The notes: a model not told the origin generated them from the sequence alone. Shown: positions 173 to 37,208, counted from the stretch's first letter. The stretch is 64,000 nucleotides of DNA from Dehalococcoidia bacterium (GCA_050011565.1 JBEKIW010000001.1:576001-640000); one strand, 5' to 3'. Numbers and translations are program-made.

Positions 173-1948
173 ATGTGCGGTATTATTGGCTATTGTGGGA
201 AGCAGTCGGCGGCTCCTATCGTTTTTGAAGGTTTACGGCGCGTGGAATACCGGGGCTATGACTCGGCAGGCATGGCTACCTTATCTAACGGGCGCCTGTT
301 AGTTACTAAAGATATCGGTAAACTGGAAGAAATTGAGAAGAGACACAACCTGAGCTCGTTGCCCGGGAATACAGCTATCGGCCATACCCGCTGGGCTACT
401 CATGGTGGCGTAACCCAAGTAAATGCACATCCGCATTGTGATTGCGCTGGAACTATAGCCGTCGTCCACAACGGAATAATTGAGAATTATCAGGAACTGC
501 GCCAACACCTTACTAGCACCGGACACCGTTTTACGTCAGAGACCGATACCGAGGTCATACCCCACCTCATTGAGGATGAAATGAAAAAGGGGGCTTCTCT
601 CGAGTCGGCAGTTCTGGCTGTGGCACCGAAACTCGAGGGCTCATACGCCTTTTTAGCTATATCGTCTCGCGACTCAGACAAAGTCGTGGCTACCAGAAAG
701 GATTGTCCTCTTGCTCTTGGCGTAGGAGAAAGCGGCTACTTTGTGGCTAGCGATGCCCTGGCCTTCTCCGGATTGGCCAATCAGCTTATACCGTTGGCTG
801 ATACTGAGGTAGCAGTACTAACAACAAAAGGAATTGAGTTATTCGATGCTGCGGGCAATAAAGTGGAGAAAGAAGCTCGACATATTGATTTACAGTGGTG
901 TGATAGCGATAAACAGGGCTATCAGTTCTACATGCTCAAGGAGATTATGGAGCAGCCGCAGACTGTCGAGGCAGCTATCAATCAAGATAAAGAGTTGTTC
1001 ACCAAGGTTGCCATGGATATCCTCAGGGCGGGTCAAGTAATAGTCACCGCTTGCGGTACCTCCAGATACGCTGCTCTGGTTGGCAGATACCTATTTTCCA
1101 AAGTTGGCAGAAAGTTTTGTGATGTGGTTATGGCCTCCGAATTTCATTATTTTGCTGATTCCGTTGATAAGAATACTGTGGTCTTAGCTGTGTCACAGAG
1201 TGGTGAGACACTGGACGTCATAGAAGGTGTAAAAAGGGCTAGAGATGCCGGCGCCCAAATTATTTCTATCGTCAACAGACCGTATTCTCAGTTATCTGAG
1301 ATGAGCCACCAGGTTATCAACCTAAATTGTGGCCCGGAATTATGTGTGGCAGCTACCAAGTCTTTCATCAGCCAGCTGGTCGTATTCTATCTCCTGTCCT
1401 TTGCTATGACCAATTCCTTTGATAAAGCTGCCGCAAATCTTAGAAGCATCAGCAATAAAGTGACTAAGACTATTGAATGGAACAACGACAAACTTAGGGG
1501 ACTGAGCCAAGAGTTAAAGGCAAAGAGTGACTTTTACTACATAGCCAGGGGAATCAATTTCGCTATTGCCTCCGAAGGCGCTTTGAAAGTTAAAGAAATC
1601 TCCTATATTCATGCTGAGGGTATGCCGGCAGGCGAACTGAAACATGGCACTTTAGCCCTTATTGAGCCGGGGACGCCGGTAGCTGTAATTTGTCCCGATG
1701 ATTATACGTACCGTGAGACGTTGAGCAATGCCATGGAAGCTAAATCGCGTGGTGCCTATATTATCGCTGTATCCGACAAGAAAAACGAAATCTATGATTT
1801 CTGGGTCAAGATTCCTAAAGTCGATGAGCTTTTATACCCCATAATCACCGTAGTTCCACTCCAGCTCCTGGCGTACCATCTGGCGATCAGCCGCGGTTAT
1901 GACCCGGACAGGCCAAGGAACCTTGCAAAATCGGTGACGGTCAAATAA
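173..1948 (+). CDS. glmS: Glutamine--fructose-6-phosphate aminotransferase (isomerizing)
   Basis: N-terminal MCGIIG, EYRGYDSAG, GHTRWATHG, HNGIIENY, two SIS domains, C-terminal PRNLAKSVTV. Confidence 0.97.
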   Translation: MCGIIGYCGKQSAAPIVFEGLRRVEYRGYDSAGMATLSNGRLLVTKDIGKLEEIEKRHNLSSLPGNTAIGHTRWATHGGVTQVNAHPHCDCAGTIAVVHNGIIENYQELRQHLTSTGHRFTSETDTEVIPHLIEDEMKKGASLESAVLAVAPKLEGSYAFLAISSRDSDKVVATRKDCPLALGVGESGYFVASDALAFSGLANQLIPLADTEVAVLTTKGIELFDAAGNKVEKEARHIDLQWCDSDKQGYQFYMLKEIMEQPQTVEAAINQDKELFTKVAMDILRAGQVIVTACGTSRYAALVGRYLFSKVGRKFCDVVMASEFHYFADSVDKNTVVLAVSQSGETLDVIEGVKRARDAGAQIISIVNRPYSQLSEMSHQVINLNCGPELCVAATKSFISQLVVFYLLSFAMTNSFDKAAANLRSISNKVTKTIEWNNDKLRGLSQELKAKSDFYYIARGINFAIASEGALKVKEISYIHAEGMPAGELKHGTLALIEPGTPVAVICPDDYTYRETLSNAMEAKSRGAYIIAVSDKKNEIYDFWVKIPKVDELLYPIITVVPLQLLAYHLAISRGYDPDRPRNLAKSVTVK

Positions 1949-1953
1949 CATTG

Positions 1954-2130
1954 ATGGGACTGAAGACTCAACCGGCCACATCGAGGAACATTATTGTCAT
2001 TTTCAGTCTCTACGAAGAACGATTTTTTGGCTACCTTGATATAGAAGTCGAAAATAGTAAATCGATTAATGGTCAAAACAACAGTACATTGATTGCGCGT
2101 TATTTTTTAGAGCGAAGGGAGGGAAAATGA
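1954..2130 (+). other. 58-aa ORF filling the glmS-dehydratase gap (small protein or deleted-gene remnant)
   Basis: Read by hand: ATG 1954 to TGA 2128-2130 with no internal stop; the stop overlaps the next ATG (ATGA). Confidence 0.3.
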
Positions 2131-3008
2131 AAAAAGTTTTGATAACAGGTGGCGCTGGCTTTTTGGGTAGGCACCTGACAAAAGGTTTACTTGACAAATA
2201 CAGCGATATTGAGATTAAGGCAATTTCTCGGCATGAAAATGAAATTGTAGAGATGATCGTAGCCTGCAATAACGATAAGAGGCTGAAACCTATCATAGGC
2301 GATATACGAGAAGTAGATACAGCTAAGTATGCTCTCACTGATGTTGATACACTGATACACTTGGCAGCCATGAAGCACATTGATTTCTGTGAGATGTATC
2401 CTTCGGAGGCTATCTCCGTTAATATAATTGCTACAATGAATCTATTGAAGTTATTCACGGGAGACACTTGCATAGGAATGTCAACAGACAAAGCTGTTGA
2501 AGCCACAGGGTGCTATGGGGCTACCAAACTTCTTCTGGAGAAACTAATCTTGGAGCAAGCCCGGAAAAACCCAAATCGTAGATACATGGTGGTTAGAAGC
2601 GGTAATATCTTTGGCTCGAGCGGTAGCGTAATTCAAAGGTGGAAGCAACAGATAAAACAAAACAACAAAGTGACGGTTACAAATTTAGAAATGACAAGGT
2701 TCTATATCGATGTAAACACGTTAGTAGGTTTTATCATACGAATTATTGAGGAGGGTGAAAGCGGGAAAATATATATACCATTCCAAAAGACGGCCAGGCT
2801 GGGGGCTTTGGCCAAAGCCATGGTTGAGCTTTACGGAGATACAAAAACCAGAATAGAGGTCGTAGGATTAAGAGAAGGGGAAAAGATGCATGAGCGTTTG
2901 TTCTCCTTACCCAAAAAAGATATTCTCACAGACATAACGGCTGAATGCTCAGAGTTCGGAGAGAACTTAAGCATAGATGAGATTAAAGATTGGCTGAAAA
3001 GTTGTTAG
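2127..3008 (+). CDS. Polysaccharide biosynthesis NDP-sugar 4,6-dehydratase/epimerase (PseB/CapD-like, Polysacc_synt_2)
   Basis: GGAGFLG Rossmann motif, HLAAMKH, STDKA, YGATK, RSGNIFGSSGSVI, GLREGEKMHE. Confidence 0.88.
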   Translation: MKKVLITGGAGFLGRHLTKGLLDKYSDIEIKAISRHENEIVEMIVACNNDKRLKPIIGDIREVDTAKYALTDVDTLIHLAAMKHIDFCEMYPSEAISVNIIATMNLLKLFTGDTCIGMSTDKAVEATGCYGATKLLLEKLILEQARKNPNRRYMVVRSGNIFGSSGSVIQRWKQQIKQNNKVTVTNLEMTRFYIDVNTLVGFIIRIIEEGESGKIYIPFQKTARLGALAKAMVELYGDTKTRIEVVGLREGEKMHERLFSLPKKDILTDITAECSEFGENLSIDEIKDWLKSC

Positions 3009-3018
3009 GGTTTTAGGA

Positions 3019-3792
3019 GTGGAGGTATTGAACGAGAAGGTGAGTGTAATTATACCTGCAAAGGACGAGGCAAATTGCATAGGCGAACTTATTGCCAGGA
3101 CCAAAATTAGCCTCGCTAAACACAAAGTTGAGATAATTGTTGTTGATGATGGCTCGAAGGATAACACCAAAGAAATCGCTTCGAGTAGTGGTGCCATAGC
3201 AATCTCACATGTTAAGACGCTGGGCAAAGGTGCCGCTATGAAAACTGGAGCCAGTGCTGCCAGTGGAGATATACTTGTATTTCTTGATGGCGATGGGGCT
3301 CATAATCCGGAAGATATACCGAACGTGATTACCCCTGTCCTTCAAAATAGGGCTGATTTGGTTATCGGTTCCAGAAATTTTCGCGGTTCCAGGACTCTTG
3401 GCTCCTATCTGCCGAGGCGAATTACTAATAAGCTAGCTTCCCTTGTCACCTCTATCATTATTTCTTTTTTATTGCCATTGACAACGTGGTTTAAATGTCC
3501 TATGAAATGGATTGGAATAGCAGATGCCGAATGTGGTTTCAAAGTAGTAAGCAGAGAAAAATGGCGTCAGTTTGATCTGGTTTCACAGGGATTTGAGATT
3601 GAGAGCGAGATAATATACGAAGCAGCTAAAAATAAGCTAACCATCCATAATGCCCCTATAAGCTGTAACTGGAATAGCAAGGTTTCCCGTCTTTCCATTG
3701 TGCGTGATGGCTTACAAACTCTTAGGCTTTTATTCAGCAAGCTTATTACTGACATGGGAGAAAGACAGGGCAACCAATCGAAGTCAAAATGA
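3019..3792 (+). CDS. GT2 glycosyltransferase, DPM1-like (polyprenol-phosphate sugar synthase type)
   Basis: SVIIPAKDE, VVDDGSKD, GKGAA, FLDGDGAH, DLVIGSR, D..CGFK, FEIESE. Confidence 0.88.
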   Translation: MEVLNEKVSVIIPAKDEANCIGELIARTKISLAKHKVEIIVVDDGSKDNTKEIASSSGAIAISHVKTLGKGAAMKTGASAASGDILVFLDGDGAHNPEDIPNVITPVLQNRADLVIGSRNFRGSRTLGSYLPRRITNKLASLVTSIIISFLLPLTTWFKCPMKWIGIADAECGFKVVSREKWRQFDLVSQGFEIESEIIYEAAKNKLTIHNAPISCNWNSKVSRLSIVRDGLQTLRLLFSKLITDMGERQGNQSKSK

Positions 3793-3986
3793 AGGTTCTG
3801 TTTGTTTTGGAGTATTACAGTCCACACATTGGCGGTGCCGAGGTTTTGTTCAAAAATCTCTGCGAAGGCTTGACCGGAAAAGTGCAAAGAACGGTTACAG
3901 AAAGCAAATACCGAGATGAATGCATTCAAGATATGGACAAGCTTGCGATGAGTGAGGGATTTATTAAGGAAAGGAGGCCGAAATGA
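3789..3986 (+). pseudogene. Truncated GT4 glycosyltransferase (N-terminal fragment only)
   Basis: MKVLFVLEYYSPHIGGAE is a typical GT4 start, but the ORF is only 65 aa; ATGA overlaps with both neighbours. Confidence 0.7.
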
Positions 3987-5206
3987 GCTCTAGGAACAAA
4001 AATATACTCATCACTGGCATAAGCGGTTTTGTCGGCTCACACATGGCCAAACATCTTCTTAATGAAGGTGCTAATGTCTTTGGCTTGGACAGAAGGCGCG
4101 CCGACGGCAACATCCCGCAAAACATCGAACATTTAGGAATTGAGAAGGAAGTCAGTTTGCTGGAGGGCGATGTGCGGGATATTTCTAGTATCGCTTCTGC
4201 GTTGGACCTGAGCAAACCGGATATTGTCTTTCATCTTGCTGCGCAATCTTTCATTCCCAGGTCGTTTTCCTGTCCTGGTGAAACCATAGAAATAAACTGT
4301 CTAGGGACAGCTAATCTTCTTGAGGCAGTTAGGAATAAGGGATTAAACCCGGTCACAGTATTTGCCGGCAGTAGCGAGGAATACGGGCTGGTAATTTTTT
4401 CGCGGTCCCAGTATCGGCGAGTCAAGAAGAAATACGGCGCGATTTTCCCCGAGCCAACGGCTATCCCAGAGCTACCCATCACTGAAACTAACCCTCTGCG
4501 CCCAATGTCTCCCTATGCCGTTAGTAAAGTTTACGGGGATTATCTTATGAGAAACTATCACACATGTTTCGGTCTGAGTACTGTGGTTTCCAGGGGCTTT
4601 AACCACGAGGGGGCAGGCAGAGGCAAAATGTTTGTAACTTCGGCGATAACCGGTCAGGTGATGCAATTCAAGAGGGGTGAAATCGATAAGATAATCATAG
4701 GTAATGTCAATGCCTTCAGAGACTGGTCGCATGTCAGTGATATTCTGAGAGGCTATTGTCTGCTAGCTGAGCGGGGTAAGTATGGGGAGGTTTATAATCA
4801 GGGTTCTCAGCGGACAAATTCGGTCTTGAGCTACCTTCTGCTAAGCCTAGAATGTGCTGGTTATGCCATAGACAAGATAGAGACAACCAGCGGCAACAAG
4901 GTTGTAAAAAGACCAAACGAGCTGGATAATTCGGAAATGTTCGGTCTACGCTTTGAGAAAACCAAAGTGGATAAGCTGATTTTAGAAGGCAAGCTGGAAT
5001 ACGAACTTTCAGACATAGGAATTATTGCTACTACAGATAAAGGAAAAATAACTATAGAATTTGATAAAGAGAAATTCAGGCCAGCCGAAGTGCCTATGTT
5101 ATTAACAAAAACAGCAAAAATTGGAGAGCTAGGCTTTAAAATAAGCCATACTTTGAAGGACATAATAAGCGACCAGCTCAATTATTTTTTGGATCCGTCA
5201 CGTTAG
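3983..5206 (+). CDS. gmd: GDP-mannose 4,6-dehydratase, long form with insertions
   Basis: ITGISGFVG, FHLAAQSF, GSSEEYG, PMSPYAVSK, FNHEG, RDWSHV, FRPAEV. Confidence 0.85.
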   Translation: MSSRNKNILITGISGFVGSHMAKHLLNEGANVFGLDRRRADGNIPQNIEHLGIEKEVSLLEGDVRDISSIASALDLSKPDIVFHLAAQSFIPRSFSCPGETIEINCLGTANLLEAVRNKGLNPVTVFAGSSEEYGLVIFSRSQYRRVKKKYGAIFPEPTAIPELPITETNPLRPMSPYAVSKVYGDYLMRNYHTCFGLSTVVSRGFNHEGAGRGKMFVTSAITGQVMQFKRGEIDKIIIGNVNAFRDWSHVSDILRGYCLLAERGKYGEVYNQGSQRTNSVLSYLLLSLECAGYAIDKIETTSGNKVVKRPNELDNSEMFGLRFEKTKVDKLILEGKLEYELSDIGIIATTDKGKITIEFDKEKFRPAEVPMLLTKTAKIGELGFKISHTLKDIISDQLNYFLDPSR

Positions 5207-5418: not shown

Positions 5419-6387
5419 ATGCCAAAGAAAGTATCAGTTATCGTGGTCAACTTTAATGGAATGTCTCATATTGACACCTGCATTGCTTCGCTCTCAAACC
5501 AGACTTATCGGCATTTTGAAGTCATTTTTGTTGACAATAACTCTAGCGATGGAAGTTTGCAGTATGCCCAGAACAAGTCACCCCGGTTAAATTTCGTTCA
5601 AAATGACAAAAACCTTGGTTATGCCGGTGGCATCAATTCCGGCTTAGCTCATGCAACGGGAGACTACATTGCACCGCTTAACATAGACACTGAAGTTACC
5701 CCAAACTGGTTGGGCACAATGGTTAGTTTTTTGGACGCTAATCCACAGGTAGCTGCTGTAACGCCCAAAATACTGTTATTTAATGACCGTAGTAAGATCA
5801 ATGCCCTGGGTTTGAATATTCATGTGACCGGGCTTGGCTTCTGTAGACAGTTAGGTAATCCAGACGATGGTTCAATTAGTCCGGAGAAGGTATCAGGAGT
5901 CAGTGGCTGCTCTTATCTAATCAGACGTGAAATATTAGAGCGTATGGGTGGTGCCCCTGAGGAATGCTTCATGGGCAATGATGATGTAATCATTTCTTGG
6001 CTGGTGAATTTAATGGGCTATGACATATACTGTGTGCCGGAAGCAACGGTCTACCATAAATACACGTTGAAAGTGAGCCCCGAGAGGATTTACACCCTGG
6101 AGAAAAACCGCCAAGCCTTATTATTGTCTACGTTAAAACCTTTGACTTTTGCAGCTTGCTTTCCTATTTTTGCTGTAATAGAAATTTTGACGGTAGGTTA
6201 TTGCACATTAAAGGGTATGACATATCTTAAAGCTAAGTTCAGCGCCTTCAGTTCCATGTGGAAAGAAAGAGACGATATAAAACAGAAGCGCGTGAGATAC
6301 ATGCATTTGAGAAAAGTCTCCGATTTCGAGTTGTTGAGAAAACTAAAGTGGAATCTTGATTGGAAACAGATATTGCGGCTCTTTTAG
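5419..6387 (+). CDS. GT2 glycosyltransferase (rhamnosyltransferase-like)
   Basis: SVIVVNFNG, VDNNSSDGS, NLGYAGGIN, LNID, VYH. Confidence 0.9.
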   Translation: MPKKVSVIVVNFNGMSHIDTCIASLSNQTYRHFEVIFVDNNSSDGSLQYAQNKSPRLNFVQNDKNLGYAGGINSGLAHATGDYIAPLNIDTEVTPNWLGTMVSFLDANPQVAAVTPKILLFNDRSKINALGLNIHVTGLGFCRQLGNPDDGSISPEKVSGVSGCSYLIRREILERMGGAPEECFMGNDDVIISWLVNLMGYDIYCVPEATVYHKYTLKVSPERIYTLEKNRQALLLSTLKPLTFAACFPIFAVIEILTVGYCTLKGMTYLKAKFSAFSSMWKERDDIKQKRVRYMHLRKVSDFELLRKLKWNLDWKQILRLF

Positions 6388-6426
6388 CGAAATCTCACCA
6401 GACACCAAAAGTTAGGGTGGCAAAAC

Positions 6427-7479
6427 ATGCTTGCAGGGCAAGGCAAAATGGTTGCTAATGCTCCTTTTATAAGCATTGTCATAGTTAATTATAATGGCAA
6501 GCGTTTCCTAGGAGAATGCTTAGCTTCCTTAAAAAACTCAGATTATCCCCGGGACAGATTCGAGGCGATATTTGTTGATAATGCTTCTAAAGATGAGTCT
6601 GTAAAATATGTAAAGGAAACTTTCCCTTGGGTTCGTATACTGGCACTAGATAAGAATTATGGCTTCGCAGAAGGGAATAATAGGGGCGCGCAATTGGCAG
6701 ACGGAGACTTCATTTTTTTACTTAATAGTGACACAGTTGTGGAATCAACATGCATCTCTAAGCTGGTGAAGACGATGGAAACCGACCCTGCCATCGGATG
6801 TTCTGTACCTAAAATCTATTTCTATGATAGCCCGGAAGTTCTAGATAGTGCTGGCTCTACTTTTGACAATTTAGGATTTTGCTGGTCACTGAGCTTTAAA
6901 CAGGAAGATTCGAAGGAAGACAATGAAATAAAAGAGGTACCTATGGCTACCGCCTGCGCCTTGCTTTTTCGCAGGCCCATTTTGAGCCAAACTTATCTTT
7001 TCGACTCCTCTTTTTTCATGGCTTACGAAGAGCTAGATTTTAATTTGAGAGTGCGCGAGCTGGGATACAAAATTAAGCTGGTACCAACTGCCAGGATATA
7101 TCACAGATTCTCAGCCTCACAACAGACTTATTTCAGCACTCAACCTACTATCTTCAAGCAGTTCAACAGCAACAGGAATAGGGCTAAAATATTAACAAAA
7201 TACTACCCGGCCAAAATACTCCTAGCCAATGCCCCTATGATATGTTTAAGCTTTGTCTACTGGGATTTATTTATTCTTAAACACGGTGGCTTTCTGAAAT
7301 TCTTTCAGGCCATCGGGGCTCAGCTCAGCTTCGCAATGTCCGGCTTAATCGAACGCTGGCAACGAAAAGACCGGCACCCGGAAAGATGGATCAACTTTAT
7401 GAGGCATCATTCACTCCGCGAATTAGTTCGATTTGGTACGCAAATGAGCGAACTGTATGAGGGTAAATTAGAGTTATGA
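6427..7479 (+). CDS. GT2 glycosyltransferase (rhamnosyltransferase-like); alternative start 6448
   Basis: SIVIVNYNG, VDNASKD, NYGFAEGNN, LLNSD, FFMAYEELD. Confidence 0.9.
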   Translation: MLAGQGKMVANAPFISIVIVNYNGKRFLGECLASLKNSDYPRDRFEAIFVDNASKDESVKYVKETFPWVRILALDKNYGFAEGNNRGAQLADGDFIFLLNSDTVVESTCISKLVKTMETDPAIGCSVPKIYFYDSPEVLDSAGSTFDNLGFCWSLSFKQEDSKEDNEIKEVPMATACALLFRRPILSQTYLFDSSFFMAYEELDFNLRVRELGYKIKLVPTARIYHRFSASQQTYFSTQPTIFKQFNSNRNRAKILTKYYPAKILLANAPMICLSFVYWDLFILKHGGFLKFFQAIGAQLSFAMSGLIERWQRKDRHPERWINFMRHHSLRELVRFGTQMSELYEGKLEL

Positions 7480-12215: not shown

Positions 12216-12234
12216 ATGCAATCTCCCACGGTCA

Positions 12235-17265: not shown

Positions 17266-17300
17266 TATCTCCTGACAATGTCTTGCTTATCTTTCAGATC

Positions 17301-17348: not shown

Positions 17349-17396
17349 GACCCTCACAATATATTAAGTTTTGCGTTATAAACAATTACCTTAGTT

Positions 17397-22996: not shown

Positions 22997-23052
22997 TATA
23001 AACCTCTCCCGCATATCATATAGTCTTTAAGCGCTTTCTGCAAACTTCTCGT
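22996..23052 (-). pseudogene. Diverged duplicate of the rmlD 3' end (TRSLQKALKDYMICGRGL*)
   Basis: Matches the rmlD C-terminus MRSWQEALKDYMTRKG at 31 of 39 nt by manual alignment; the stop overlaps the rmlC ATG. Confidence 0.8.
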
Positions 23053-28156: not shown

Positions 28157-28169
28157 CTCCCAGTCCTTA

Positions 28170-29349: not shown

Positions 29350-32300
29350 TTACGGTGTAACGCTTCCGGTGGAAGACCAGCCACTCCACCCTCCAGTATT
29401 ACCAGCCTTTACTCGCCAGTAATAGGTTGTGCCGATGGTAAGTTTCACATCCTGCGAAGTAGTGCTTACCTCGGCATCAAACATGCTGGTCCCGGTGAAA
29501 TCAGACGCGGTATTCACCTGCAGGCGGTACTTCGTCGCCCCGCTGGAGGCATTCCACTCAAAAGTGACAGAGGTCTTCGGAGTTACAATAGCCGGAGGGG
29601 CCGGCGGTGCAGGTAATGTGATGGCAGCCCAGCCAGCGATAAAATAGGTATAACCTGTTTGGGTATTCCAGCCTGAGCCTGCCGGGTCCGGGAATGTCCA
29701 GGAGGAGTAGGTTGAAGGTTTCCAGCGGACGGTTGCGGATGGGTCGCTAGAGTAGTAAATGTTGGCGGAATCGCCCACCACCGCCAGCCAGTAATATGTG
29801 CCGGAATTGACGGATGTAGAAGTGATTGGTATAGAAGTCCAGGCTCCCGCCGAAACCGGTGTGGAGGTGTTAACGGCGTTGCGCAGGGCACCTGGGCTGC
29901 CTGCGCTATCGTCATAGATGGCGACCTTTACGTTGCCGCTGGCGCTGGCCTTAACCCTAAATTCGGTGATGGGACCTGTGGCGCTGGCGGGGAAACGCTG
30001 CAGTATGACGGCGCCACTGCCGCCGCCACCACCTCCGGTAGAGGCGGCATCGGCGGCTACGCCGATGAGCTGCCCTGCTCCTCCAGCCGCAGTGTTAAAG
30101 GTTGCGCTGCTATCTGGCCAGTCGCTTCCGCCTGAATTGGAGGCGAAGCACCGGTAATAATATGTAGTGCCACGATTCAAGTCGGTTATTCCTGTGGAGA
30201 AAGATGCGCTTTGTGTACCCAGGTTAACACTGTGGTCCCAGCTAACCGCGTTTGTTGCGCCGTCATTGTCGCCCCAGTAGACAATAACAGTTGGATTCTC
30301 ACCACCGGTATCGGTTATGGCTCCATTTAACCTGGCTGAGGTTGCGGTAATACTGCCGGCGCCGGTGGAGTTGGTAACCGTTGGTGCACCAAGAGCCGGG
30401 GTAGCCGGGGTCATGAAGCTATCACTGCTACCTACCCAGTTGCTTCCGCCTGAATTGGAGGCGAAGCACTGATAATAATATGTAGTTGAAGGAGTCAATC
30501 CAGTTATAGGTGTGGAGAAAGTTCCGGCGACTTGGGTACCCAGGTTGACGCTATGGTCCCAACTGGTGTAGGTTGTGTGGCCATCGCTGGCACCCCAGTA
30601 GACAATAACGGTTGGATTCTCACCGCCGGTAGCAGTTATGGCTCCATTTAACGTGGCTGAGACTGGGGTAAGATTGCTTTCGCCGGTGGAATTGGTAACC
30701 GTTGGTGCGCTGGGAATAACAGTAGACCAGCCGGCGATAAAGTAGGTATAACCTGTTTGGGCACTCCAGCCTGAGCCCGCCGGGTCGGGGTATGTCCAGG
30801 AGGAGTAGGTAGCGGATTTATAGCGGACGGTTGCGGATGGGTCGCTGGAGTAGTAAATGTTGGCGGAATCGCTGACCACCGCCAGCCAGTAATAGTTACC
30901 GGAGGTGACGGAGGTAGAGTTGATTGGTATAGAAGTCCAGGCTCCCGCCGAAACCGGTGTGGAGGTGTTAACGGCGTTGCGCAGGGCACCTGGGCTGCCT
31001 GCGCTATCGTCATAGATGGCGACCTTTACGTTGCCGCTGGCGCTGGCCTTAACCCTAAATTCGGTGATGGGACCTGTGGCGCTGGCGGGGAAACGCTGCA
31101 GTATGACGGCGCCACTGCCGCCGCCACCACCTCCGGTAGAGGCGGCATCGGCGGCTACGCCGATTAGCTTCTGACCCGCACCGGCTGGATTGCTTATGAT
31201 GAGGGAGAAGTCTTTGTTACCCGATTGCAGGCCGGATACTACACGGACATTGAAATTGAAGGTGCGGGCCTCTGTTGGTATGCCCGTGATTGTACCACTG
31301 GTAGAATCGAGATTAAGATCAGCTGGCCAGTCGCCAGTATGTGACCACGCATTGCCTCCAGAGCCGCCGGTAGCCTGAAGTGTCACCGGTCCGTAGGGCA
31401 TATTTTTAGTCCCACCGGGAAGAGGCGCGGTATTGGTAATAACAATAGTGCCACTGGAGACAATAAGCGTGAAATTCTGGTAAGTCGCCTGGGTGCCGTC
31501 GTTGGCCTGAAGGGCAAAATTGAACCCGCTCATATTGACCACTGTCGGCGTTCCGGTTAAATTGCTGCCAACAATATGGAGTCCGCCAGGCAATGACCCC
31601 GAATACAGCGACCAGGTATATGAGCCGGTGCCGCCGCTGGCGGATAGAGGTCCAGGATAATAGACGCCGGTAGTGCCGTCGGGCAAGGTTGTAGTAGTAA
31701 TCCCAATTTGGCCCCCCACCGGCGGAGTCCCGGTATATGCTGAAACCAGCCAGGGCTGGAAATTAATGAAGGTCGAAGTCGAAACACTATCGCCAAAGCT
31801 CAGGCCATCATAACTTGGTCCCGAGGCATGCCCCCAGTAGTTGAACTTGGCATTAAGTGTGCCCGTACCAGTATTGGAGACACCATAGCTGGTATTCCCT
31901 GCAATGTTATTATTGCTCACTGTCAGAGTAGTAGCATCAACTCCGGTTGCAACATCAATACCAATACTGTTACTGGAAACATTGTTACCTGTCAATGTAG
32001 TATTGTTGCTATTAGTTTTTAGCTTAATTCCATCGACGACGTTCGAGTTAGCTGTATTTCCGATCAATGTGTTGCCTGTTGAATTATCTATGCGGAAACC
32101 GTGCTGACCGTTCGAGTTTGCGGTGTTATTGGTGAATGTATTGTCGTTGCTCCCGGCGCCAGTCCCCTTAACCAGGAAGAATCCTACGGCATTGCTGCTG
32201 GTGTAACTGTTCGAGTTCGCTATGTTACCCGTGAATGTATTGTTACTAGCCGAGTCCAGTCTGAATCCGTTGCCGTTGGGGCCGTTCGCGTTTGCTGTGT

Positions 32301-33933
32301 TGTTGATGAATGTATTGTAGGTAGAGTGGTATACCTCAAAGCCCTGTTGGTTGCCAGAAGCATTATTGCCCGTTAATGTGTTGTGGTTGCTACCATCACC
32401 CAACCAGATGCCATCGTAGTTACCCGTCAGAATATTATTGGAGATGTTGGAGTTCGCCACTCCAGCGCCAAGGTATATCCCTGCTTGTCCTCCTCCGGTT
32501 GCGCCACGCACTGTGAATCCCGAGATGTTCACGTAATTAGCAGTGACATTAAAGACGCTAGCGGCTGGATCCGGTGCGGTCACAATCACAGTAGTGCTGC
32601 TGGCGCCTGTCAGGGTGAGCGGTATATTCACAGATAAATTCTCGTTGTATGTCCCTGCCGGCACGGTGATGGTGTCGCCGGAGACGGCGACAGCGATGGC
32701 AGCCGTGATAGTTGCATATCCAGTTGTGGTTACACCGTGAATAAGCTTCACGGCGGTAATTTCGTAGGGGCTTGAAGTTATATGTGTTGGCTCAACACTT
32801 GTCCAGACGGTCACATTGTAGAAGCCGAAGGTAGTTGGGTTCAGGATGCCAGAGGCTTTGTTGAAGGTAACCGTGAATTGCTGACCGGGGACAATAGGCG
32901 CCGTTGCCGGTATAGTTACCGTTACCTGCTGTCCAGCTACAGTTACAGTAACACACGGGGTACCTTTCACAAAAACATTCCCCGGGGTACTACTAAAATC
33001 AGGGACGGTTGTGTTAGAGGGGAATACTATGGTGATAGTGTCACCCGCATTCAGGCTGGCGCCGGTGGTCATGGTAATGCGGTAGCCGGTGTTGAGGCCG
33101 ATGAAACGGGTATCGTATGGGTTCACGGTTATACTGTTGGGCGGCGTTGGAGGTATGGTGGTCGACATAGACGGTAGGGTGACGATGTTGCTGTCTAACG
33201 TGACTGCGCCAACTCGCGCCAGCGCTCTACCGTTCAGCGTTGCGCCGGTCGTCATCGTGATGGATTGATCTGCCAGTATGTTCCCTTGAAAGACAGACGT
33301 CGTTCCGAGGGTCGCCGAGGTGCCAACTTGCCAAAAGATGTTGGCCGCATTAGCGCCGCCGCTCAGGATAACCTTGCGACCGGATGTCGTTGTAAGTGTG
33401 GACGCTATCTGGAAGATCCAAACAGCATCCGCGTTGCCCTGGGCGTCTAGAGTGAGATCCCCTGACGATATCGCCAGCGAGGACGTGGATTTGTAGAGAC
33501 CCGGAGCAAGGGTTTGCCCGCCAATATTTCCTGCCACAGTGACAGGTGCAAGTGTTCGTCCAGCGGCGTCGTTGTATGCAGTGGTCAAGTCCAGTTTGGC
33601 CTGGCCTGCGGCAGAACCAACGCCTGTGTATGTCTCCCCGTTCACGCTTCCGGGCGGGAATCCAGGAACTGCAGTACCGGGGCTCACCCCAAGATCCCCA
33701 TTAACCGTGGTAGCACCTGTATTGGTGACCGTGGACCCAGCCAGGACCGCGAACGCAGCCGCTGAACCCAGCGGTACGATTAGTTGGGCCGTCTGATGCA
33801 GCGGTGTTGGTTGGGCCGACTGTTGCAATATGCTTGCCTGCACCGTTCTCGCCGGCACCACTGCCACCAGCGATGACATCAGTAACAGAACCATGAACAG
33901 CGAGAATGGTTTCCATAGTTTTAATTTAGACAT
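29350..33933 (-). CDS. Large secreted surface protein: DUF3494 ice-binding-like domain, parallel beta-helix (NosD-like), putative Ig repeats, repeated beta-sandwich/FN3-like stalk
   Basis: GGAGGT RBS before ATG 33933; signal peptide; FAVLAGSTVTNTG..TLAPGLY..IFWQVGTSATLG; Asn-rich coils; LPDGT...ASGG.GSYTWS. Confidence 0.88.
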   Translation of the reverse strand: MSKLKLWKPFSLFMVLLLMSSLVAVVPARTVQASILQQSAQPTPLHQTAQLIVPLGSAAAFAVLAGSTVTNTGATTVNGDLGVSPGTAVPGFPPGSVNGETYTGVGSAAGQAKLDLTTAYNDAAGRTLAPVTVAGNIGGQTLAPGLYKSTSSLAISSGDLTLDAQGNADAVWIFQIASTLTTTSGRKVILSGGANAANIFWQVGTSATLGTTSVFQGNILADQSITMTTGATLNGRALARVGAVTLDSNIVTLPSMSTTIPPTPPNSITVNPYDTRFIGLNTGYRITMTTGASLNAGDTITIVFPSNTTVPDFSSTPGNVFVKGTPCVTVTVAGQQVTVTIPATAPIVPGQQFTVTFNKASGILNPTTFGFYNVTVWTSVEPTHITSSPYEITAVKLIHGVTTTGYATITAAIAVAVSGDTITVPAGTYNENLSVNIPLTLTGASSTTVIVTAPDPAASVFNVTANYVNISGFTVRGATGGGQAGIYLGAGVANSNISNNILTGNYDGIWLGDGSNHNTLTGNNASGNQQGFEVYHSTYNTFINNTANANGPNGNGFRLDSASNNTFTGNIANSNSYTSSNAVGFFLVKGTGAGSNDNTFTNNTANSNGQHGFRIDNSTGNTLIGNTANSNVVDGIKLKTNSNNTTLTGNNVSSNSIGIDVATGVDATTLTVSNNNIAGNTSYGVSNTGTGTLNAKFNYWGHASGPSYDGLSFGDSVSTSTFINFQPWLVSAYTGTPPVGGQIGITTTTLPDGTTGVYYPGPLSASGGTGSYTWSLYSGSLPGGLHIVGSNLTGTPTVVNMSGFNFALQANDGTQATYQNFTLIVSSGTIVITNTAPLPGGTKNMPYGPVTLQATGGSGGNAWSHTGDWPADLNLDSTSGTITGIPTEARTFNFNVRVVSGLQSGNKDFSLIISNPAGAGQKLIGVAADAASTGGGGGGSGAVILQRFPASATGPITEFRVKASASGNVKVAIYDDSAGSPGALRNAVNTSTPVSAGAWTSIPINSTSVTSGNYYWLAVVSDSANIYYSSDPSATVRYKSATYSSWTYPDPAGSGWSAQTGYTYFIAGWSTVIPSAPTVTNSTGESNLTPVSATLNGAITATGGENPTVIVYWGASDGHTTYTSWDHSVNLGTQVAGTFSTPITGLTPSTTYYYQCFASNSGGSNWVGSSDSFMTPATPALGAPTVTNSTGAGSITATSARLNGAITDTGGENPTVIVYWGDNDGATNAVSWDHSVNLGTQSASFSTGITDLNRGTTYYYRCFASNSGGSDWPDSSATFNTAAGGAGQLIGVAADAASTGGGGGGSGAVILQRFPASATGPITEFRVKASASGNVKVAIYDDSAGSPGALRNAVNTSTPVSAGAWTSIPITSTSVNSGTYYWLAVVGDSANIYYSSDPSATVRWKPSTYSSWTFPDPAGSGWNTQTGYTYFIAGWAAITLPAPPAPPAIVTPKTSVTFEWNASSGATKYRLQVNTASDFTGTSMFDAEVSTTSQDVKLTIGTTYYWRVKAGNTGGWSGWSSTGSVTP
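29629..31170 (-). repeat. Two further copies of the same domain (about 29629-30072 and 30728-31170) flanking two FN3-like repeats
   Basis: 29823-30066 and 30921-31164 read as identical over 244 bp. Confidence 0.92.
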
Positions 33934-33962
33934 TTGACACCTCCGTTTATTTTTTGCTTCAT

Positions 33963-34013
33963 AAATAGAAAAAGGCAGTGGCAGCACCCAAAAACTGGTA
34001 CTATCACCGCCTT
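33963..34013 (-). terminator. Intrinsic terminator-like hairpin in the leader of the adhesin gene
   Basis: Minus strand AAGGCGGUGAUAGUACC-loop-GGUGCUGCCACUGCCUU (16 of 17 pairs including GU) followed by UUUCUAUUUAU, 30 nt before the ATG. Confidence 0.7.
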
Positions 34014-34102
34014 CTCATTTCTTGCAACCTGAGCCTCCTTATCGAGTAAAATAGCAGGACTAGCGCAAGCGCCAGCACCACGGCAAATGGAATGCCAAAC
34101 AT
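34004..34102 (-). CDS. 32-aa hydrophobic, Arg-tailed leader peptide (MFGIPFAVVLALALVLLFYSIRRLRLQEMRRR)
   Basis: Translated by hand; one TM-like stretch plus a basic tail; the stop codon lies in the 5' arm of the hairpin; no strong RBS. Confidence 0.4.
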   Translation of the reverse strand: MFGIPFAVVLALALVLLFYSIRRLRLQEMRRR

Positions 34103-34319
34103 CTTCTGCTATTTGATTTCGACAAAAACCACCTCTACCGTCTCCTCTTTCAACCACAAACCAACCTCATTGGGTCGGTTTCACTATTGGCTCAGCATTA
34201 GAACAAGACCATATTATGCCTACTACTTCTTTGCCCCCCCCAAATATCGGACAATTGATCTCACTACCTAGCTAAATTTATATGCAATTATCTATCTGAA
34301 TTCAATATACGATGTTTAT

Positions 34320-34347
34320 ATAATACAGCACAAATGACAGTTGTCAA
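34320..34347 (-). promoter_or_regulatory. Sigma70-type promoter toward the adhesin/rml genes
   Basis: TTGACA-16 nt-TATTAT on the minus strand; overlapped by the near-palindrome tgacagttgtca. Confidence 0.55.
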
Positions 34348-34613
34348 GACCTCTTGATAAGCTTTATTTAGACTTTTTTGGTAAAATTAAAGTGTATTCT
34401 GAAAGCAGATGCTTTAGGTAGTGCGTTTATCAGGCAATGTCAGTTAAACCAAATTCAAAGGGTAGGTAACAAGTTTATGCCAGAAGTTCCCACGGTTTCC
34501 AGCTATGACTAATAGCCAATCTAGCTAAGCCATATACTACAGGAAAGTCCAAACTTTTGTTCATGTCGGCAACCGATATTCTATCAAAACGGCAAATATT
34601 TTGGAATAGGGGA

Positions 34614-34642
34614 TTGACAGATTAATACGTTCGTGATATATT
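34614..34642 (+). promoter_or_regulatory. Sigma70-type promoter with extended -10 for the RHH gene
   Basis: TTGACA-17 nt-TATATT with TG at 34634-34635. Confidence 0.7.
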
Positions 34643-34678
34643 AAGAATAAATAATATCACTTAAGTGAGGTATATCAA

Positions 34679-34873
34679 TTGGGTGAATTGAGAATAACTG
34701 TATCTGACAAACTCCACAGAAAATTAAAGTACAAAGCGCTCGATGAGGAGATGACTCTCAGAGAGTTGGTTTCCGCTATTCTCGAGAGCTATTTTGGCTC
34801 GGAACCCACCACCAGAATGGTAAGAAGAGAAGGAGCGGGAAAAGCTACAAGCTCTGATCAGGCACAAATTTGA
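34679..34873 (+). CDS. Small ribbon-helix-helix (CopG/ParG-like) DNA-binding protein
   Basis: LRITVSDKLHRKLKYKA...MTLRELV..ILE pattern; GAGGT RBS and a strong promoter. Confidence 0.7.
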   Translation: MGELRITVSDKLHRKLKYKALDEEMTLRELVSAILESYFGSEPTTRMVRREGAGKATSSDQAQI

Positions 34874-34892
34874 GGGTTGGCCTACTGTCGAA

Positions 34893-37208
34893 TCATTTTG
34901 TGTACTCGAAAATTTTTACTTCAGGAACCGTACCTATTGCAGGGTCCGCGACCAAGCTTTTTGAGGTATAGATTAATCTATAATGTTCCACGGCTGGTAA
35001 CGGCACCGGGCTAACATACTGGTTATTGCTGACTATCCTGTAGTTGCCTGATTTCTGACTGGTAACATAGTTTTGGGCTTCTGCATAGCTATCGAAGGAT
35101 TGCACACTGGTAATCTGTCTGTAGTATTGACCATCGGGGGTGACTTTCTCCTGGTAAGAAATCACTATAGAACTTTTAGGAATGACATTTCTGCCATCAA
35201 AATTGTAGAGGCGGACGACAAGCGAGCGGTAATATTCAGGATAAAATAGTATTATCGGCTCAAGTGTGTTGTTTGTGAGTTGATAATAAATACCAAAGAA
35301 TTTGTCCGGGTTACTGCCGCTAAGGGTTGCTAAGGCGTGGAACTTACCACCCATTATTGTGCTTATATCATGGTCGACGATAACATACTTCGAGCCCCAC
35401 TGGTCTAATATTTTGTTAGCCGAGGCTTCATCTTGAGCAATAAAAATGAATTGCTCCCCCGCGGCTCCGGTGCCTGGGTTAGAAGTGGGTATGCGATGGC
35501 CAATTCTAGTTATCCAATAGCCGTAGTCCCACCAGGCGGTTACGCCGTAAGCGGTTTCAGGATTAGTGTAGCTTTCTCCGGATGGTGGTTCTTTGTATAG
35601 CTCATAATAATAATCGGGGTTGCCGAATGGCTCAGGTGTATTGTCTTTTAGCCAAGAGAGAGATTCGCACCATGCATTCGAGGGAGCAAACGGTGCCGCG
35701 CTGGCAGTATCTACAGCTTTGCCGATATTAGGGAAAAATACAAGGAAGAAGACAGCTATAACTCCCAATGCCATGAGTACTTGCCTGCCGGCGCGAGACC
35801 CCTCTCGTCTTTTGGGCTTGGGTCTCCGTTTAGTCTCTACGGGCATGCCATCAGGTGCGACTGACGGTTCTTTAAAACCGGTTAATTGCAGAATTAGCCA
35901 GGAAAGGTAGCCGGCCAATAAAGCTACATTGACAACAAAGTAATAGGCGAAACGCCGCATAGATAAAGTAGCTGCCAGCATAATCAGGCTCCAGACAACG
36001 AACATCGTTTTTTCCGTTTCACCACGTTTGATGACAAGGTATACGAGTATGCCTAAGGATATAAAGGTGAGGAAAAAGCTGGTAGTGAAATTACCCCAGG
36101 CGATTGTCCATGAGAAACTGCCATAAGGAAGGAGCAGAGGCTGCATCTCAAGGACAGTGGTACCAATAGGCCAGTTAAAAATGCCGAGACGTCCTACTAT
36201 CGCATAGTAAAGAGATGGGGTAACGATACGAAAAACCACAAGGCTCACTAGCCCTAATCCGATGATAGCTGCCGGATATATTATTGGCTTTACGTTGCGT
36301 TTAGCCATGAAGTGGGAAAGCACAGCCATAGCTATAGGGATAATAATAGCGATTGCTAAAGAAGCTAAAGCCATCCTGTCCCGAGAAACAAGTAAAAACA
36401 TCAATAGGGCAACGATAAAAGTAATGGTGCTGACGAAACAGAGGTATTCAGTAGGCCTGCGCCTCAAATGGTCAAAAATAAACTGGACAATTAAATAGAC
36501 AAAGATAATGAAAACGAACATCAGCGCTCCGCCCCAGGTGAGGAAGTATATTCCCAGGAAAATGCCGGCTATAAGGCTATAGATAAGTGGCTTGGTCACG
36601 GTTGACCACTGCCTGTGCCACAAGCTATCAAATGTTAATTGCTTTTCTGTGCCAATCTTCACCGCCAGAATCAGGAACAGCATGGTCACCGTAGTAAATA
36701 GTACTTCGGCAACGTGATAGTCGGTGAAACCAAGTATTGACCTGCCGAGAAACTCGCTGGGGAAGATAGCAACCAGACCGGCAGCTATTACACCAGCCCA
36801 ACGATTGAACAACGTTTTTCCGATAAAGTACACCGGAATGGTGGTCAGGGCGCCAAGGATTGCAGGGAAATAAACACCTACCATATCTACCACATGTTGA
36901 CTTGGAGAACCAAAACCGAATAGCCAGGCCACTCCGGAAATAAGGTAGGGCCAAAATGTTTGAGCGCTAAGCGCCGATCCGCTATGATAAAGTAGGTAAG
37001 GGTCAAAAGTTATTAGGTGAGGAAAATTATGGACCAGGTTATCGACGATCCGCATGAAAAAATAAGCATCATTGCCAGTAAACTTGATCCAGTCGCCGAC
37101 AAATACTTTGTCGTAGGGCAACACAACTCGAAGATACAAGGCGGCGCCAAAACATACCGCTACTAATATGCCGGAAACAAGTTTCGAGTTAAACTCAGTG
37201 CGGTTCAT
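34893..37208 (-). CDS. aglB: STT3/AglB-type oligosaccharyltransferase (archaeal-like)
   Basis: GNDAYFFMR, DYHVAE (DxH), TVLEMQP (TIXE-like), RRFAYY, AWWDYGYWI, SNP, GKF; many N-terminal TM segments and a soluble C-terminal domain. Confidence 0.92.
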   Translation of the reverse strand: MNRTEFNSKLVSGILVAVCFGAALYLRVVLPYDKVFVGDWIKFTGNDAYFFMRIVDNLVHNFPHLITFDPYLLYHSGSALSAQTFWPYLISGVAWLFGFGSPSQHVVDMVGVYFPAILGALTTIPVYFIGKTLFNRWAGVIAAGLVAIFPSEFLGRSILGFTDYHVAEVLFTTVTMLFLILAVKIGTEKQLTFDSLWHRQWSTVTKPLIYSLIAGIFLGIYFLTWGGALMFVFIIFVYLIVQFIFDHLRRRPTEYLCFVSTITFIVALLMFLLVSRDRMALASLAIAIIIPIAMAVLSHFMAKRNVKPIIYPAAIIGLGLVSLVVFRIVTPSLYYAIVGRLGIFNWPIGTTVLEMQPLLLPYGSFSWTIAWGNFTTSFFLTFISLGILVYLVIKRGETEKTMFVVWSLIMLAATLSMRRFAYYFVVNVALLAGYLSWLILQLTGFKEPSVAPDGMPVETKRRPKPKRREGSRAGRQVLMALGVIAVFFLVFFPNIGKAVDTASAAPFAPSNAWCESLSWLKDNTPEPFGNPDYYYELYKEPPSGESYTNPETAYGVTAWWDYGYWITRIGHRIPTSNPGTGAAGEQFIFIAQDEASANKILDQWGSKYVIVDHDISTIMGGKFHALATLSGSNPDKFFGIYYQLTNNTLEPIILFYPEYYRSLVVRLYNFDGRNVIPKSSIVISYQEKVTPDGQYYRQITSVQSFDSYAEAQNYVTSQKSGNYRIVSNNQYVSPVPLPAVEHYRLIYTSKSLVADPAIGTVPEVKIFEYTK

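Follow-up and report, generated by a model that had tools for sequence, protein, structure and literature searches.

An AglB-type oligosaccharyltransferase ends a glycan-assembly island, a candidate protein N-glycosylation locus, in a Dehalococcoidales bacterium

During the analysis of a 64,000-nucleotide stretch of DNA from a Dehalococcoidia bacterium (GCA_050011565.1 JBEKIW010000001.1:576001-640000; the whole stretch is called here the window), we observed that positions 173-37208 are a glycan-assembly island ending in an intact gene for an oligosaccharyltransferase (OST). We think it probable that this is a protein-glycan locus, through which secreted proteins would be N-glycosylated by an AglB-type route with a monophosphate-linked donor. 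A previous sequence-only reading of the window had proposed an archaeal-type N-glycosylation island co-encoded with its candidate substrates, and this interpretation was upheld in part: the AglB-type OST, the Dehalococcoidales host and a family 2 glycosyltransferase (GT2) resembling DPM1 and AglJ found support, but the co-encoded substrates and the degree of novelty did not.

The window is part of a 742-kb contig; the genome, of 2.0 Mb, is in 8 contigs. Coordinates are positions in the window (G000:C1:576001-640000), on the plus or minus strand as given; G000 is the source genome, other G numbers denote genomes of relatives, L numbers loci and C numbers contigs. The 26 open reading frames (ORFs) in 173-37208 were scanned with Pfam and NCBIfam profiles.

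The oligosaccharyltransferase is of the AglB type

The OST (P0001) matched TIGR04154, the archaeal AglB subfamily, with 589.3 bits (cut-off 450, E 1.4e-176), and this was its sole NCBIfam match at E ≤1e-5. Pfam gave STT3 (93.9 bits, cut-off 24.5, residues 43-322) and AglB_core-like (PF22627, 84.5 bits), and no match to STT3-PglB_core (PF21436) at E ≤0.001. A PDB sequence search returned 6 matches at E ≤0.01, all archaeal OSTs or their domains, with no PglB chain among them; the best was Archaeoglobus fulgidus AglB-L (AfAglB-L; 3WAJ, E 1.6e-56, OST residues 22-643). GNDAYFF (D47), GFTDYH (D163, H165), TVLE (E354), RRFAYYF (R419), WWDYGYW (559-565, with WWDYG at 559-563) and GGKFHAL (K622) are in register with the motifs of AfAglB-L. 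Across 47 aligned homologues, R419 and WWD are kept in all 47, D163 in 46, E354 in 44, H165 in 40 and K622 in 38; D47 is kept in 39, and 7 rows are gapped there from ORF trimming. Judged from these alignments, the OST looks catalytically intact and AglB-type rather than PglB-type.

An enzyme of the PglB type, of the Campylobacter/deltaproteobacterial kind, would share with our OST the superfamily and the WWDYG motif. The profile comparison nevertheless fits the OST to TIGR04154 and AglB_core-like and not to STT3-PglB_core, PglB chains are absent from the PDB matches, and PglC was not found in the genome (see below). By its hidden Markov model (HMM) scores the PglB assignment is refuted, and we give it virtually no credence.

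The peripheral domain AglB_L1 (PF18079), a feature of AglB-L proteins and not of OST activity, was not matched in the OST by Pfam, and is present in 91-99% of the members of the nearest archaeal ESM Atlas clusters. In a structure search of the same Atlas, an archaeal cluster named 'archaeosortase A system-associated' came second (TM 0.83), after the OST's own cluster. A search of the genome for archaeosortase (PF09721) gave no match, and the Haloferax volcanii control gave none either; neither of the two secreted proteins of the island ends in a transmembrane anchor, a point relevant to the PGF-CTERM association of TIGR04154. A PMT_2 search for further enzymes of the GT-C glycosyltransferase fold returned the OST itself only.

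Host and integrity of the locus

The host is an uncultured Dehalococcoidales bacterium. Its genome is 99.2% complete with 0.42% contamination and contains a bacterial 16S gene. The closest relatives of the OST (62-66% identity) are in metagenome-assembled genomes (MAGs) titled Dehalococcoidales, Dehalococcoidia or Chloroflexi, and the 'probable Dehalococcoidia' of the sequence-only reading is thereby upheld. On the right side of the island, 25 of 26 ORFs have Pfam matches and are ordinary bacterial housekeeping genes, including surE, thiolase, asd, pyrD, alaS, ruvX and aroE, so that the flank is bacterial, as previously described. Sigma70 promoters had also been described there; sigma-70-like matches in 33900-37500 are at chance level (8 vs. 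6.8 in shuffles). GC content is 0.40-0.43 over most glycosyltransferase (GT) and methyltransferase stretches of the island, 0.53-0.55 along the greater part of both secreted-protein genes and 0.46-0.52 in the right flank. An Rfam search of the window gave two tRNAs only.

The membership of the OST in an archaeal NCBIfam subfamily, together with a GC content between 0.40 and 0.55 in different parts of the island, might be taken to mean that the OST region is archaeal DNA misjoined to a bacterial contig, or that the bin is contaminated. However, the window lies within its contig (at 576-640 kb of 742 kb), contamination is 0.42%, and 29 of the 41 relatives carry AglB, some of them with genomes in one or a few contigs; it is also found in related loci that are nearly all from bacterial MAGs (among the best 80 of 503). 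In addition, the OST-surE join (37208-37385) is covered by contigs of other studies: in X3 (another study), the contigs 36812-37221 and 37196-37937 are 100% identical to the window and overlap across the junction, and contigs of X4 and X5 cover 37180-38085. A 15.9-kb Logan contig of X1, which may be the source sample, covers 34178-39500 with zero differences. Furthermore, the OST of G007 has surE, thiolase and asd in its vicinity, and that of L035 has thiolase next to it. Misassembly and contamination are effectively refuted, and we regard either as hardly conceivable.

In 34207-34489, where the conserved OST segment has its inner edge, contigs of X1 and X3 include a variant form in which 174 bases (34207 to 34382) are missing, and one further contig aligns to 34382-34489 with 11 differences. 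The pattern resembles strain variation or a short repeat. The OST and the 1545-aa gene are separated by 0.9 kb, in which there is a 64-aa ORF (34679-34873, plus strand); by eye it resembles a ribbon-helix-helix (CopG/antitoxin-like) protein, and it has a strong promoter-like match (11/12) just upstream (34614-34642).

Distribution and phylogeny

A set of 41 genomes of relatives, G000 included, gave TIGR04154 matches in 29, of which 28 were above the cut-off, with scores of the relatives between 460 and 704 bits. When G000 is left aside, AglB is carried by 19/24 genomes of family f1, 2/3 of f2, 0/2 of f3, 7/10 of f4 and 0/1 of f5. When 301 genomes from across the phylum, each with a completeness of 80% or more, were sampled, 9 were above the TIGR04154 cut-off, all in the class of the window, which contributed one more contig-end fragment at 218 bits; matches in the other classes were all below 45 bits and are read as other GT-C proteins. 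The unpublished genomes G240, G170, G300 and G078 enter this sample solely as non-carriers in the denominator. No AglB was found in the 9 genomes of family f7 in the phylum sample, which are mostly single-contig and of 1.4-1.9 Mb. The OST is a lineage trait, and the genes around it are strain-variable.

Some relatives have longer OST frames (1042-1369 aa; G010:C3:119025-122873, L020, L041 and L071), which may be C-terminal fusions or extensions. A single in-frame stop was seen within the otherwise full-length AglB of G004 (TAG, C103:27016-29298) and of G023 (TAA, C280:5178-7490), and these interrupted genes may be pseudogenes or assembly errors.

A search for related loci gave 503, the best 80 of which were kept for comparison. 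These 80 are mostly from Dehalococcoidia; the others include Phycisphaerae/Planctomycetes (28-36% identity), Vicinamibacteria/Bryobacterales (27-32%) and, at 23-25%, three archaea. From plasmids, tblastn gave a further two haloarchaeal proteins that bear the TIGR04154 annotation (28% identity, 94-95% coverage). A quick IQ-TREE analysis was made of 47 rows, from which L018 and L045 had been dropped as split ORFs and which contain only five archaeal rows, with no Methanomicrobia or Archaeoglobi. All 42 bacterial rows group with the two from haloarchaea in a single clade (SH-aLRT 100), which excludes the two Asgard rows and the Nitrososphaeria outgroup. Within the clade there is a polytomy of the haloarchaea (on a long branch), Acidobacteriota/Planctomycetota (98), the main Chloroflexota group (83) and one stray Dehalococcoidia row. 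The tree agrees with membership in the TIGR04154 subfamily and cannot name the donor lineage, because it holds five archaeal rows and leaves bacteria and haloarchaea in a polytomy.

Classical initiating enzymes are absent and a GT2 is the candidate primer

Profile searches of the genome did not find the families of MraY/WecA (PF00953), PglC/WbaP (PF02397), penicillin-binding protein (PBP) transpeptidases (PF00905), Wzz (PF02706) or archaellin (PF01917), and found one UppS-type cis-prenyltransferase. The searches for MraY/WecA, PglC/WbaP, PBP, Wzz, archaellin and UppS were each positive in the expected control genomes. The absence of PglC, WecA, WbaP and Wzz, previously noticed in the window, therefore extends to the whole 99.2%-complete genome. 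A WaaL-like gene is likewise missing from the window, but a gene of the Wzy_C/WaaL family is present elsewhere in the genome. Since no archaellin is encoded, the OST is not there for an archaellum, and this use was ruled out for the source organism. As far as profile searches tell, the genome shows no peptidoglycan-synthesis genes; cultured Dehalococcoides lack peptidoglycan and have an S-layer-like envelope. In the 41 genomes, PF00953 was matched in none and PF02397 above its cut-off in two (G006 and G022), and 27 of the 29 AglB carriers have neither classical initiator family above cut-off.

The island contains a GT2 (P0244) whose best NCBIfam match is AglJ (TIGR04182) with 106.5 bits, below the cut-off of 325, followed by PpgS (83 bits). 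Its best PDB match is the Pyrococcus furiosus dolichyl-phosphate-mannose (Dol-P-Man) synthase (5MLZ, E 1.2e-16), and the next are ArnC (E about 1e-11), GpgS and GtrB (E 7.5e-6). These similarities make it a candidate member of the polyprenyl-phosphate GT2 class, and a candidate either for the primer of a lipid-linked glycan or for the maker of a lipid-P-sugar donor. In euryarchaeal Agl pathways, it is often a GT2 that loads the first sugar on a lipid monophosphate. Considering that the genome has no classical initiators and one UppS, the glycan is probably started in a similar way, by the DPM1/AglJ-like GT2 on polyprenyl monophosphate.

Two genomes of the same genus, G005 and G008, keep glmS (86-87% identity), a short-chain dehydrogenase/reductase (SDR) gene (80-90%), this GT2 (69-82%) and a GMD-like SDR (76-81%), with the OST (63-68%) at 5-6 kb from the glmS-SDR-GT2-SDR block. 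They also keep the gene of a DUF2206 protein (40-49%); their other GT and methyltransferase genes differ.

A second AglJ-like GT2 (232 aa, TIGR04182 121 bits) is found at about 488.7 kb of the same contig (G000:C1:485861-491184, locus L117:3861-9184), where it adjoins a 594-aa membrane GT2, a GT87-family (GT-C) protein, DUF2064 and a radical-SAM/DUF3641 protein. This group appears to be a module apart, of a lipid-linked or arsenosugar type. Beyond these two copies, no further AglJ-like GT2 was found in the genome.

Gene content of the island

The gene inventory of the sequence-only reading was found again in the ORF listing and in the Pfam and NCBIfam scans, and as an observation it is confirmed overall. 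The features, in order, are:

173-1948, plus: glmS, glutamine--fructose-6-phosphate transaminase (TIGR01135 695 bits, cut-off 418), which would supply amino-sugar precursors
2127-3008, plus: PseB/FnlA-like SDR of the nucleoside-diphosphate (NDP)-N-acetylhexosamine (HexNAc) 4,6-dehydratase type (Polysacc_synt_2 218 bits; TIGR03589 PseB 186, below cut-off 408)
3019-3792, plus: DPM1/AglJ-like GT2, P0244, 257 aa, candidate polyprenyl-phosphate glycosyltransferase (TIGR04182 and 5MLZ matches)
3983-5206, plus: GMD-like SDR of the NDP-sugar 4,6-dehydratase type (GDP_Man_Dehyd 247 bits; TIGR01472 gmd 177, below cut-off 415)
5419-6387, plus: GT2 (Pfam Glycos_transf_2 105 bits)
6427-7479, plus: GT2 (Pfam Glycos_transf_2 95 bits)
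7476-8627, plus: family 4 glycosyltransferase (GT4; Pfam Glycos_transf_1 96 bits)
8663-11005, plus: DUF2206 membrane protein, P0123, 780 aa, candidate GT-C-fold glycosyltransferase (Pfam DUF2206 150 bits)
11049-12254, minus: GT4 (Pfam Glycos_transf_1 146 bits)
12235-13365, minus: GT4 (Pfam Glycos_transf_1 142 bits)
13551-14543, plus: weakly methyltransferase-like ORF (Methyltransf_23 E 1.9e-4, below Pfam cut-off)
14620-15708, plus: FkbM-family methyltransferase (Methyltransf_21/FkbM 87 bits; TIGR01444 118 bits, cut-off 37.7)
15566-16498, minus: rhamnosyltransferase-like GT2 (Pfam; TIGR01556 102 bits, below cut-off 200)
16486-19793, minus: four S-adenosylmethionine (SAM) methyltransferases, one of them CmcI/rhamnosyl-O-methyltransferase-like (Pfam)
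19865-21004, minus: GT4 (Pfam)
21030-22493, minus: multi-span Wzx/MOP-family flippase, candidate for the lipid-linked glycan (Polysacc_synt PF01943 139 bits, cut-off 28.2)
22499-23014, minus: RmlC-like cupin, probable dTDP-4-dehydrorhamnose 3,5-epimerase (dTDP_sugar_isom 50.6 bits; TIGR01221 38, below cut-off 156)
23467-26115, minus: secreted 882-aa protein, P0002 (signal peptide; Peptidase_M10 34.9 bits)
26286-29237, minus: rmlD, rmlB and rmlA (TIGR01214 318 bits, cut-off 224; TIGR01181 486, cut-off 365; TIGR01208 479, cut-off 320)
29350-33987, minus: secreted 1545-aa protein, P0003 (signal peptide; Ice_binding 225 bits, Beta_helix 64 bits)
34893-37208, minus: AglB-type OST, P0001, 771 aa (TIGR04154, STT3, AglB_core-like)

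The intact OST, the flippase, the DPM1-like GT2, seven further GTs and the DUF2206-like protein that had been reported are all present in the Pfam and NCBIfam scans, the glycosyltransferases being 8 in total (four GT2 and four GT4). Six methyltransferase ORFs are there as well, but that at 13551-14543 stays below the Pfam cut-off. In the rhamnose set, rmlA, rmlB and rmlD are above their NCBIfam cut-offs and the RmlC-like cupin is below. The gene at 3983-5206, previously taken for a GDP-sugar gene, is merely GMD-like, and the GDP nucleotide is not established. The GTs at 5419-8627 have few or zero counterparts among related loci and are part of the variable cassette. Archaeal affinity is clear for the OST and DUF2206 only, and the remainder is a generic, strain-variable sugar cassette.

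DUF2206 has a predicted GT-C fold

An AlphaFold2 model of P0123, obtained from a 38-sequence alignment, had a pLDDT of 79.6 and a pTM of 0.84. When it was compared with known structures by VIA-align, Z was 22.7 with yeast STT3, 22.3 with AfAglB, 21.4 with PglB, 19.9 with ALG12, 18.6 with Pmt4 and 18.1 with ArnT; all 44 rows at Z of at least 9.7 are GT-C, and the next row is at 6.3. The aligned GT-C core corresponds to model residues 188-780, and about 190 extra N-terminal residues (transmembrane helices) lie outside it. The first 31 Foldseek matches were also all GT-C, with low TM-scores (0.31-0.50). As modelled, DUF2206 has the GT-C fold, an assignment that is new here. D223, E227 and D493 are invariant in the alignment of the family. 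A PDB sequence search with DUF2206 gave zero matches. DUF2206 as an OST diverged at the sequence level was rejected, given an HHalign probability of 7% against the AglB profile and the lack of a PDB sequence match; its 'YWQD' stretch as a counterpart of WWDYG was also dropped.

DUF2206 is found in 19 of the 41 relatives, and 18 of these, all but G024, carry AglB as well. The two genes are on one contig within about 25 kb in 8 genomes, and in G013 they are adjacent. In family f4, AglB is present in 7/10 genomes and DUF2206 in 0/10. We conclude that DUF2206 is an accessory enzyme, which is not required. Of 14 control genomes, Methanosarcina acetivorans alone contains the family. Among the 120 homologues listed, of 644, identity is 52-100% and every source name that bears a lineage is Dehalococcoidia or Chloroflexi; the Atlas clusters of the family come from Chloroflexota, Methanobacteriota, Halobacteriota and Bathyarchaeota. 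No paper mentioning DUF2206 was found in the searchable literature.

The secreted proteins of the island

P0002 has a signal peptide, an M10 metallopeptidase domain, fn3 and two repeats in common with P0003, which has an ice-binding-like domain, a parallel beta-helix, fn3 and repeats. The module common to the two is of about 150 residues, starts near the motif LIGVA and occurs twice per protein, before the fn3-like domains; one copy matches the 'choice-of-anchor R' domain weakly, with a score under the cut-off. By their domain composition, the two genes appear to be related by domain shuffling.

Both proteins had been put forward as sequon-rich substrates encoded together with the OST. Both indeed have signal peptides, and P0003, with 25 N-X-S/T sequons (1.62 per 100 aa vs. 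a genome mean of 0.39), has the highest number among the genome's ORFs of 150 aa or more, but composition alone predicts 28 sequons for P0003 and 10.4 for P0002, which has 7. Secreted-like proteins contain 0.69 sequons per 100 aa, as compared to 0.35 in the non-secreted, non-membrane rest; the observed/expected ratio is 1.01 in secreted-like, 1.07 in membrane and 0.95 in the remaining proteins. Sequon enrichment was therefore rejected as substrate evidence, since the counts match composition. No homologues of P0002 or P0003 occur among the best 80 of the 503 related loci, and in 20 related loci no large sequon-rich secreted protein lies beside the OST, so that a conserved pattern of an OST with a neighbouring substrate was discarded. 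The co-encoded pair is thus particular to the source genome, and in the lack of enrichment and conservation its co-location with the OST is weak evidence. P0002 is a possible substrate of the OST.

Elsewhere on the contig (G000:C1:272579-288466, locus L108) there are large secreted proteins with CARDB/PKD/invasin domains, of 1056-1177 aa and with 14-18 sequons each. These CARDB/PKD proteins (C1:272-289 kb) possibly belong to an S-layer or the cell surface, and are as plausible AglB substrates as P0002 and P0003.

Proposed pathway and alternative uses of the glycan

In the pathway that we propose, dTDP-rhamnose would be made by rmlABD and the RmlC-like cupin, and a modified HexNAc-type sugar by glmS and the two SDR dehydratase-like enzymes. 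The DPM1/AglJ-like GT2 would load the first sugar on a polyprenyl monophosphate, whose lipid would come from the single UppS. At the cytoplasmic face, the seven other GT2 and GT4 enzymes and the methyltransferases would extend and O-methylate the chain. The Wzx/MOP protein would then flip it, and the OST would transfer it to the Asn of N-X-S/T in secreted or surface proteins. In Haloferax, AglS attaches one more sugar on the outer side of the membrane, taken from a lipid-P-sugar of its own; the DUF2206 GT-C enzyme probably acts there in a similar way, with a separate polyprenyl-P-sugar as the donor of another sugar. We infer the lipid donor, the order of the steps, the feeding of the OST by the island, the acceptor proteins and the role of DUF2206, as well as glycosylation itself.

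Outside the island, the genome encodes one Wzy_C (O-antigen ligase/PglL-like) protein, of 846 aa (G000:C4:139410-141950; L107:2410-4950, minus strand; 38.8 bits, cut-off 31.7), with weak tetratricopeptide-repeat matches. Its gene lies inside a type IV pilus cluster, with an A24 prepilin peptidase, PilM/N, an N_methyl pilin, PilC and PilB. Wzy_C proteins such as PglL and TfpO O-glycosylate pilins, and by family and position this protein is a candidate pilin O-oligosaccharyltransferase.

The island might mainly serve another acceptor, namely type IV pilin or other proteins that the PglL/TfpO-like Wzy_C protein would O-glycosylate, or else a polysaccharide or glycolipid of the surface, and AglB would take part of the island output or a different, simpler donor. 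The placing of the Wzy_C gene in the pilus cluster of C4 agrees with this, as do the O-glycosylated surface filaments of a cultured Chloroflexota bacterium, described in the available part of PMC12488501. The content of the OST-flanking cassette is not conserved, and family f4 has AglB and no DUF2206, which is also in line with another acceptor. On the other hand, known Wzy_C ligases and O-oligosaccharyltransferases take diphosphate-linked donors primed by PglC/WecA-type enzymes, neither of which was found here; Wzz was not found in the genome, and the OST is the sole recognised oligosaccharide-transferring enzyme within the island. The two uses are moreover compatible with each other. We consider it unlikely that another acceptor is the main one.

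A different possibility is that the glmS-SDR-GT2-SDR block and DUF2206 are a separate module of three components (a GT2 that loads a lipid, a flippase and a GT-C), comparable to ArnC/ArnT or GtrA/B/C, that decorates a surface molecule, the AglB donor being primed by another enzyme of unrecognised type. The matches of the GT2 to ArnC and GtrB besides the Dol-P-Man synthase, the GT-C fold of DUF2206, which includes the similarity to ArnT, and the fact that, in G005, G007 and G008, it is this block and DUF2206 that are conserved speak in its favour. However, no alternative primer was found, and the other AglJ-like GT2 sits in its GT87/DUF2064/radical-SAM context; besides, the Haloferax-type pathway holds both functions together, so that this explanation overlaps with an AglB pathway primed by the GT2. 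A fully separate module appears to us quite improbable.

Several points weigh against AglB-type N-glycosylation fed by the island. The GT2 is below the AglJ equivalog cut-off, and it could make the lipid-P-sugar for DUF2206, which would leave the true primer to be found elsewhere. Two AglB carriers, G006 and G022, do have a PglC-like gene, and an absence established by HMM search leaves room for an initiating enzyme of unrecognised type. The sequon ratios given above do not set secreted proteins apart. In the best 80 of the 503 loci, a Wzx homologue occurs in 2, an AglJ-like GT2 in 7 and DUF2206 in 3; as the OST neighbourhood is so variable, the linkage of cassette and OST rests on the source genome and a few close ones. 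Finally, the Wzy_C protein could be a second user of the same lipid-linked glycan, a possibility that is new here.

Prior knowledge and significance

The gene-level observation is not new, given that NCBI and JGI already label Dehalococcoidia proteins as OSTs; the interest lies in a system unstudied in bacteria, in DUF2206 and in the missing initiators. No study of an AglB/STT3-type OST in Dehalococcoidia was found in the literature; searches widened to the Chloroflexota, or made with the name of the TIGR04154 subfamily, gave unrelated papers only, and the available parts of PMC10307638 and PMC7203096 contain nothing on an OST in the lineage. The description of the pathway as uncharacterised in this group is therefore right as far as our literature searches go, but the genes were already named and the transfer of AglB from archaea to bacteria is published (PMC4973528). 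In the part of that article available, bacterial Stt3/AglB homologues nest in a euryarchaeal clade, transfer from archaea to bacteria is stated to have occurred 'at least twice', and Chloroflexi are not named. Archaellum clusters are reported to have been transferred from Methanotecta to Dehalococcoidia and Anaerolineae, and O-glycosylation is reported for the filament of a cultured Chloroflexota strain (bioRxiv 10.1101/2025.02.02.636118, PMC12488501); neither source mentions AglB in its accessible portion.

The discovery of the gene itself matters less, because annotation pipelines already name the OST. If the system is active, the lineage would carry an archaeal-type pathway in cells without visible peptidoglycan genes, in a class into which the archaellum has already been reported to have moved. 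An archaeal way of building an N-glycosylated envelope could then work in a bacterium, new OSTs and lipid-monophosphate pathways would become available for glycoengineering, and there would be a handle on the DUF2206 family. More tentatively, and with doubt prevailing, we suggest that a Dehalococcoidia branch without visible peptidoglycan genes may have adopted the envelope toolkit of euryarchaea, made of AglB N-glycosylation of surface proteins from a polyprenyl-monophosphate donor and of DUF2206 as a second, protein- or glycan-directed transferase beside AglB. To our knowledge, all characterised bacterial N-glycosylation is of the PglB type with a diphosphate-linked donor. If the suggestion is true, a bacterial N-glycosylation that does without a phosphoglycosyl transferase would be seen here for the first time. 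DUF2206, a GT-C family common to methanogens and haloarchaea whose nearest solved folds are OSTs, would gain a testable function, for example in Methanosarcina acetivorans, which is genetically tractable.

Comparison with known systems

A. fulgidus AglB-L (3WAJ, 3WAK, 5GMY, 7E9S) has the same external loop 1 Asp, D-x-H, TIxE-type Glu, WWDYG and DK-type Lys as the OST of the window, and the two likewise have in common the Arg of (R/N)RFAYYF and the AglB_core-like domain. The OST of the window is, however, shorter (771 vs. 875 aa), lacks the Pfam AglB_L1 domain and is in a bacterial host. With respect to TIGR04154, 'oligosaccharyl transferase, archaeosortase A system-associated', its score above the curated cut-off places it in the subfamily.

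The Pgl system of Campylobacter jejuni, which N-glycosylates en bloc (a PglC-primed undecaprenyl-diphosphate glycan, PglK and PglB), has in common with the island an STT3-superfamily enzyme, WWDYG and a gene beside glycan genes. It differs in that our core domain is AglB_core-like, no PglC or WecA was found and the flippase is of the Wzx and not of the ABC type.

ArnC/ArnT and GtrA/GtrB/GtrC resemble the island in the pairing of a polyprenyl-phosphate GT2 with a GT-C-fold membrane transferase, here DUF2206. As compared to ArnT and other solved GT-C enzymes, DUF2206 has no sequence-level link, and the likeness comes from its modelled fold.

The pathway of Haloferax volcanii is encoded by AglJ, AglG, AglI, AglE, AglD, AglR, AglS and AglB. 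Its logic consists of a GT2 primer, soluble GTs, a MOP flippase, AglB and a membrane enzyme for the last sugar, and the island has a candidate for each of these roles. In contrast with Haloferax, the GT2 is not an AglJ equivalog (106 vs. 325 bits), the sugars would be rhamnose and methylated sugars, and the lipid is probably a bacterial polyprenol from UppS rather than dolichol.

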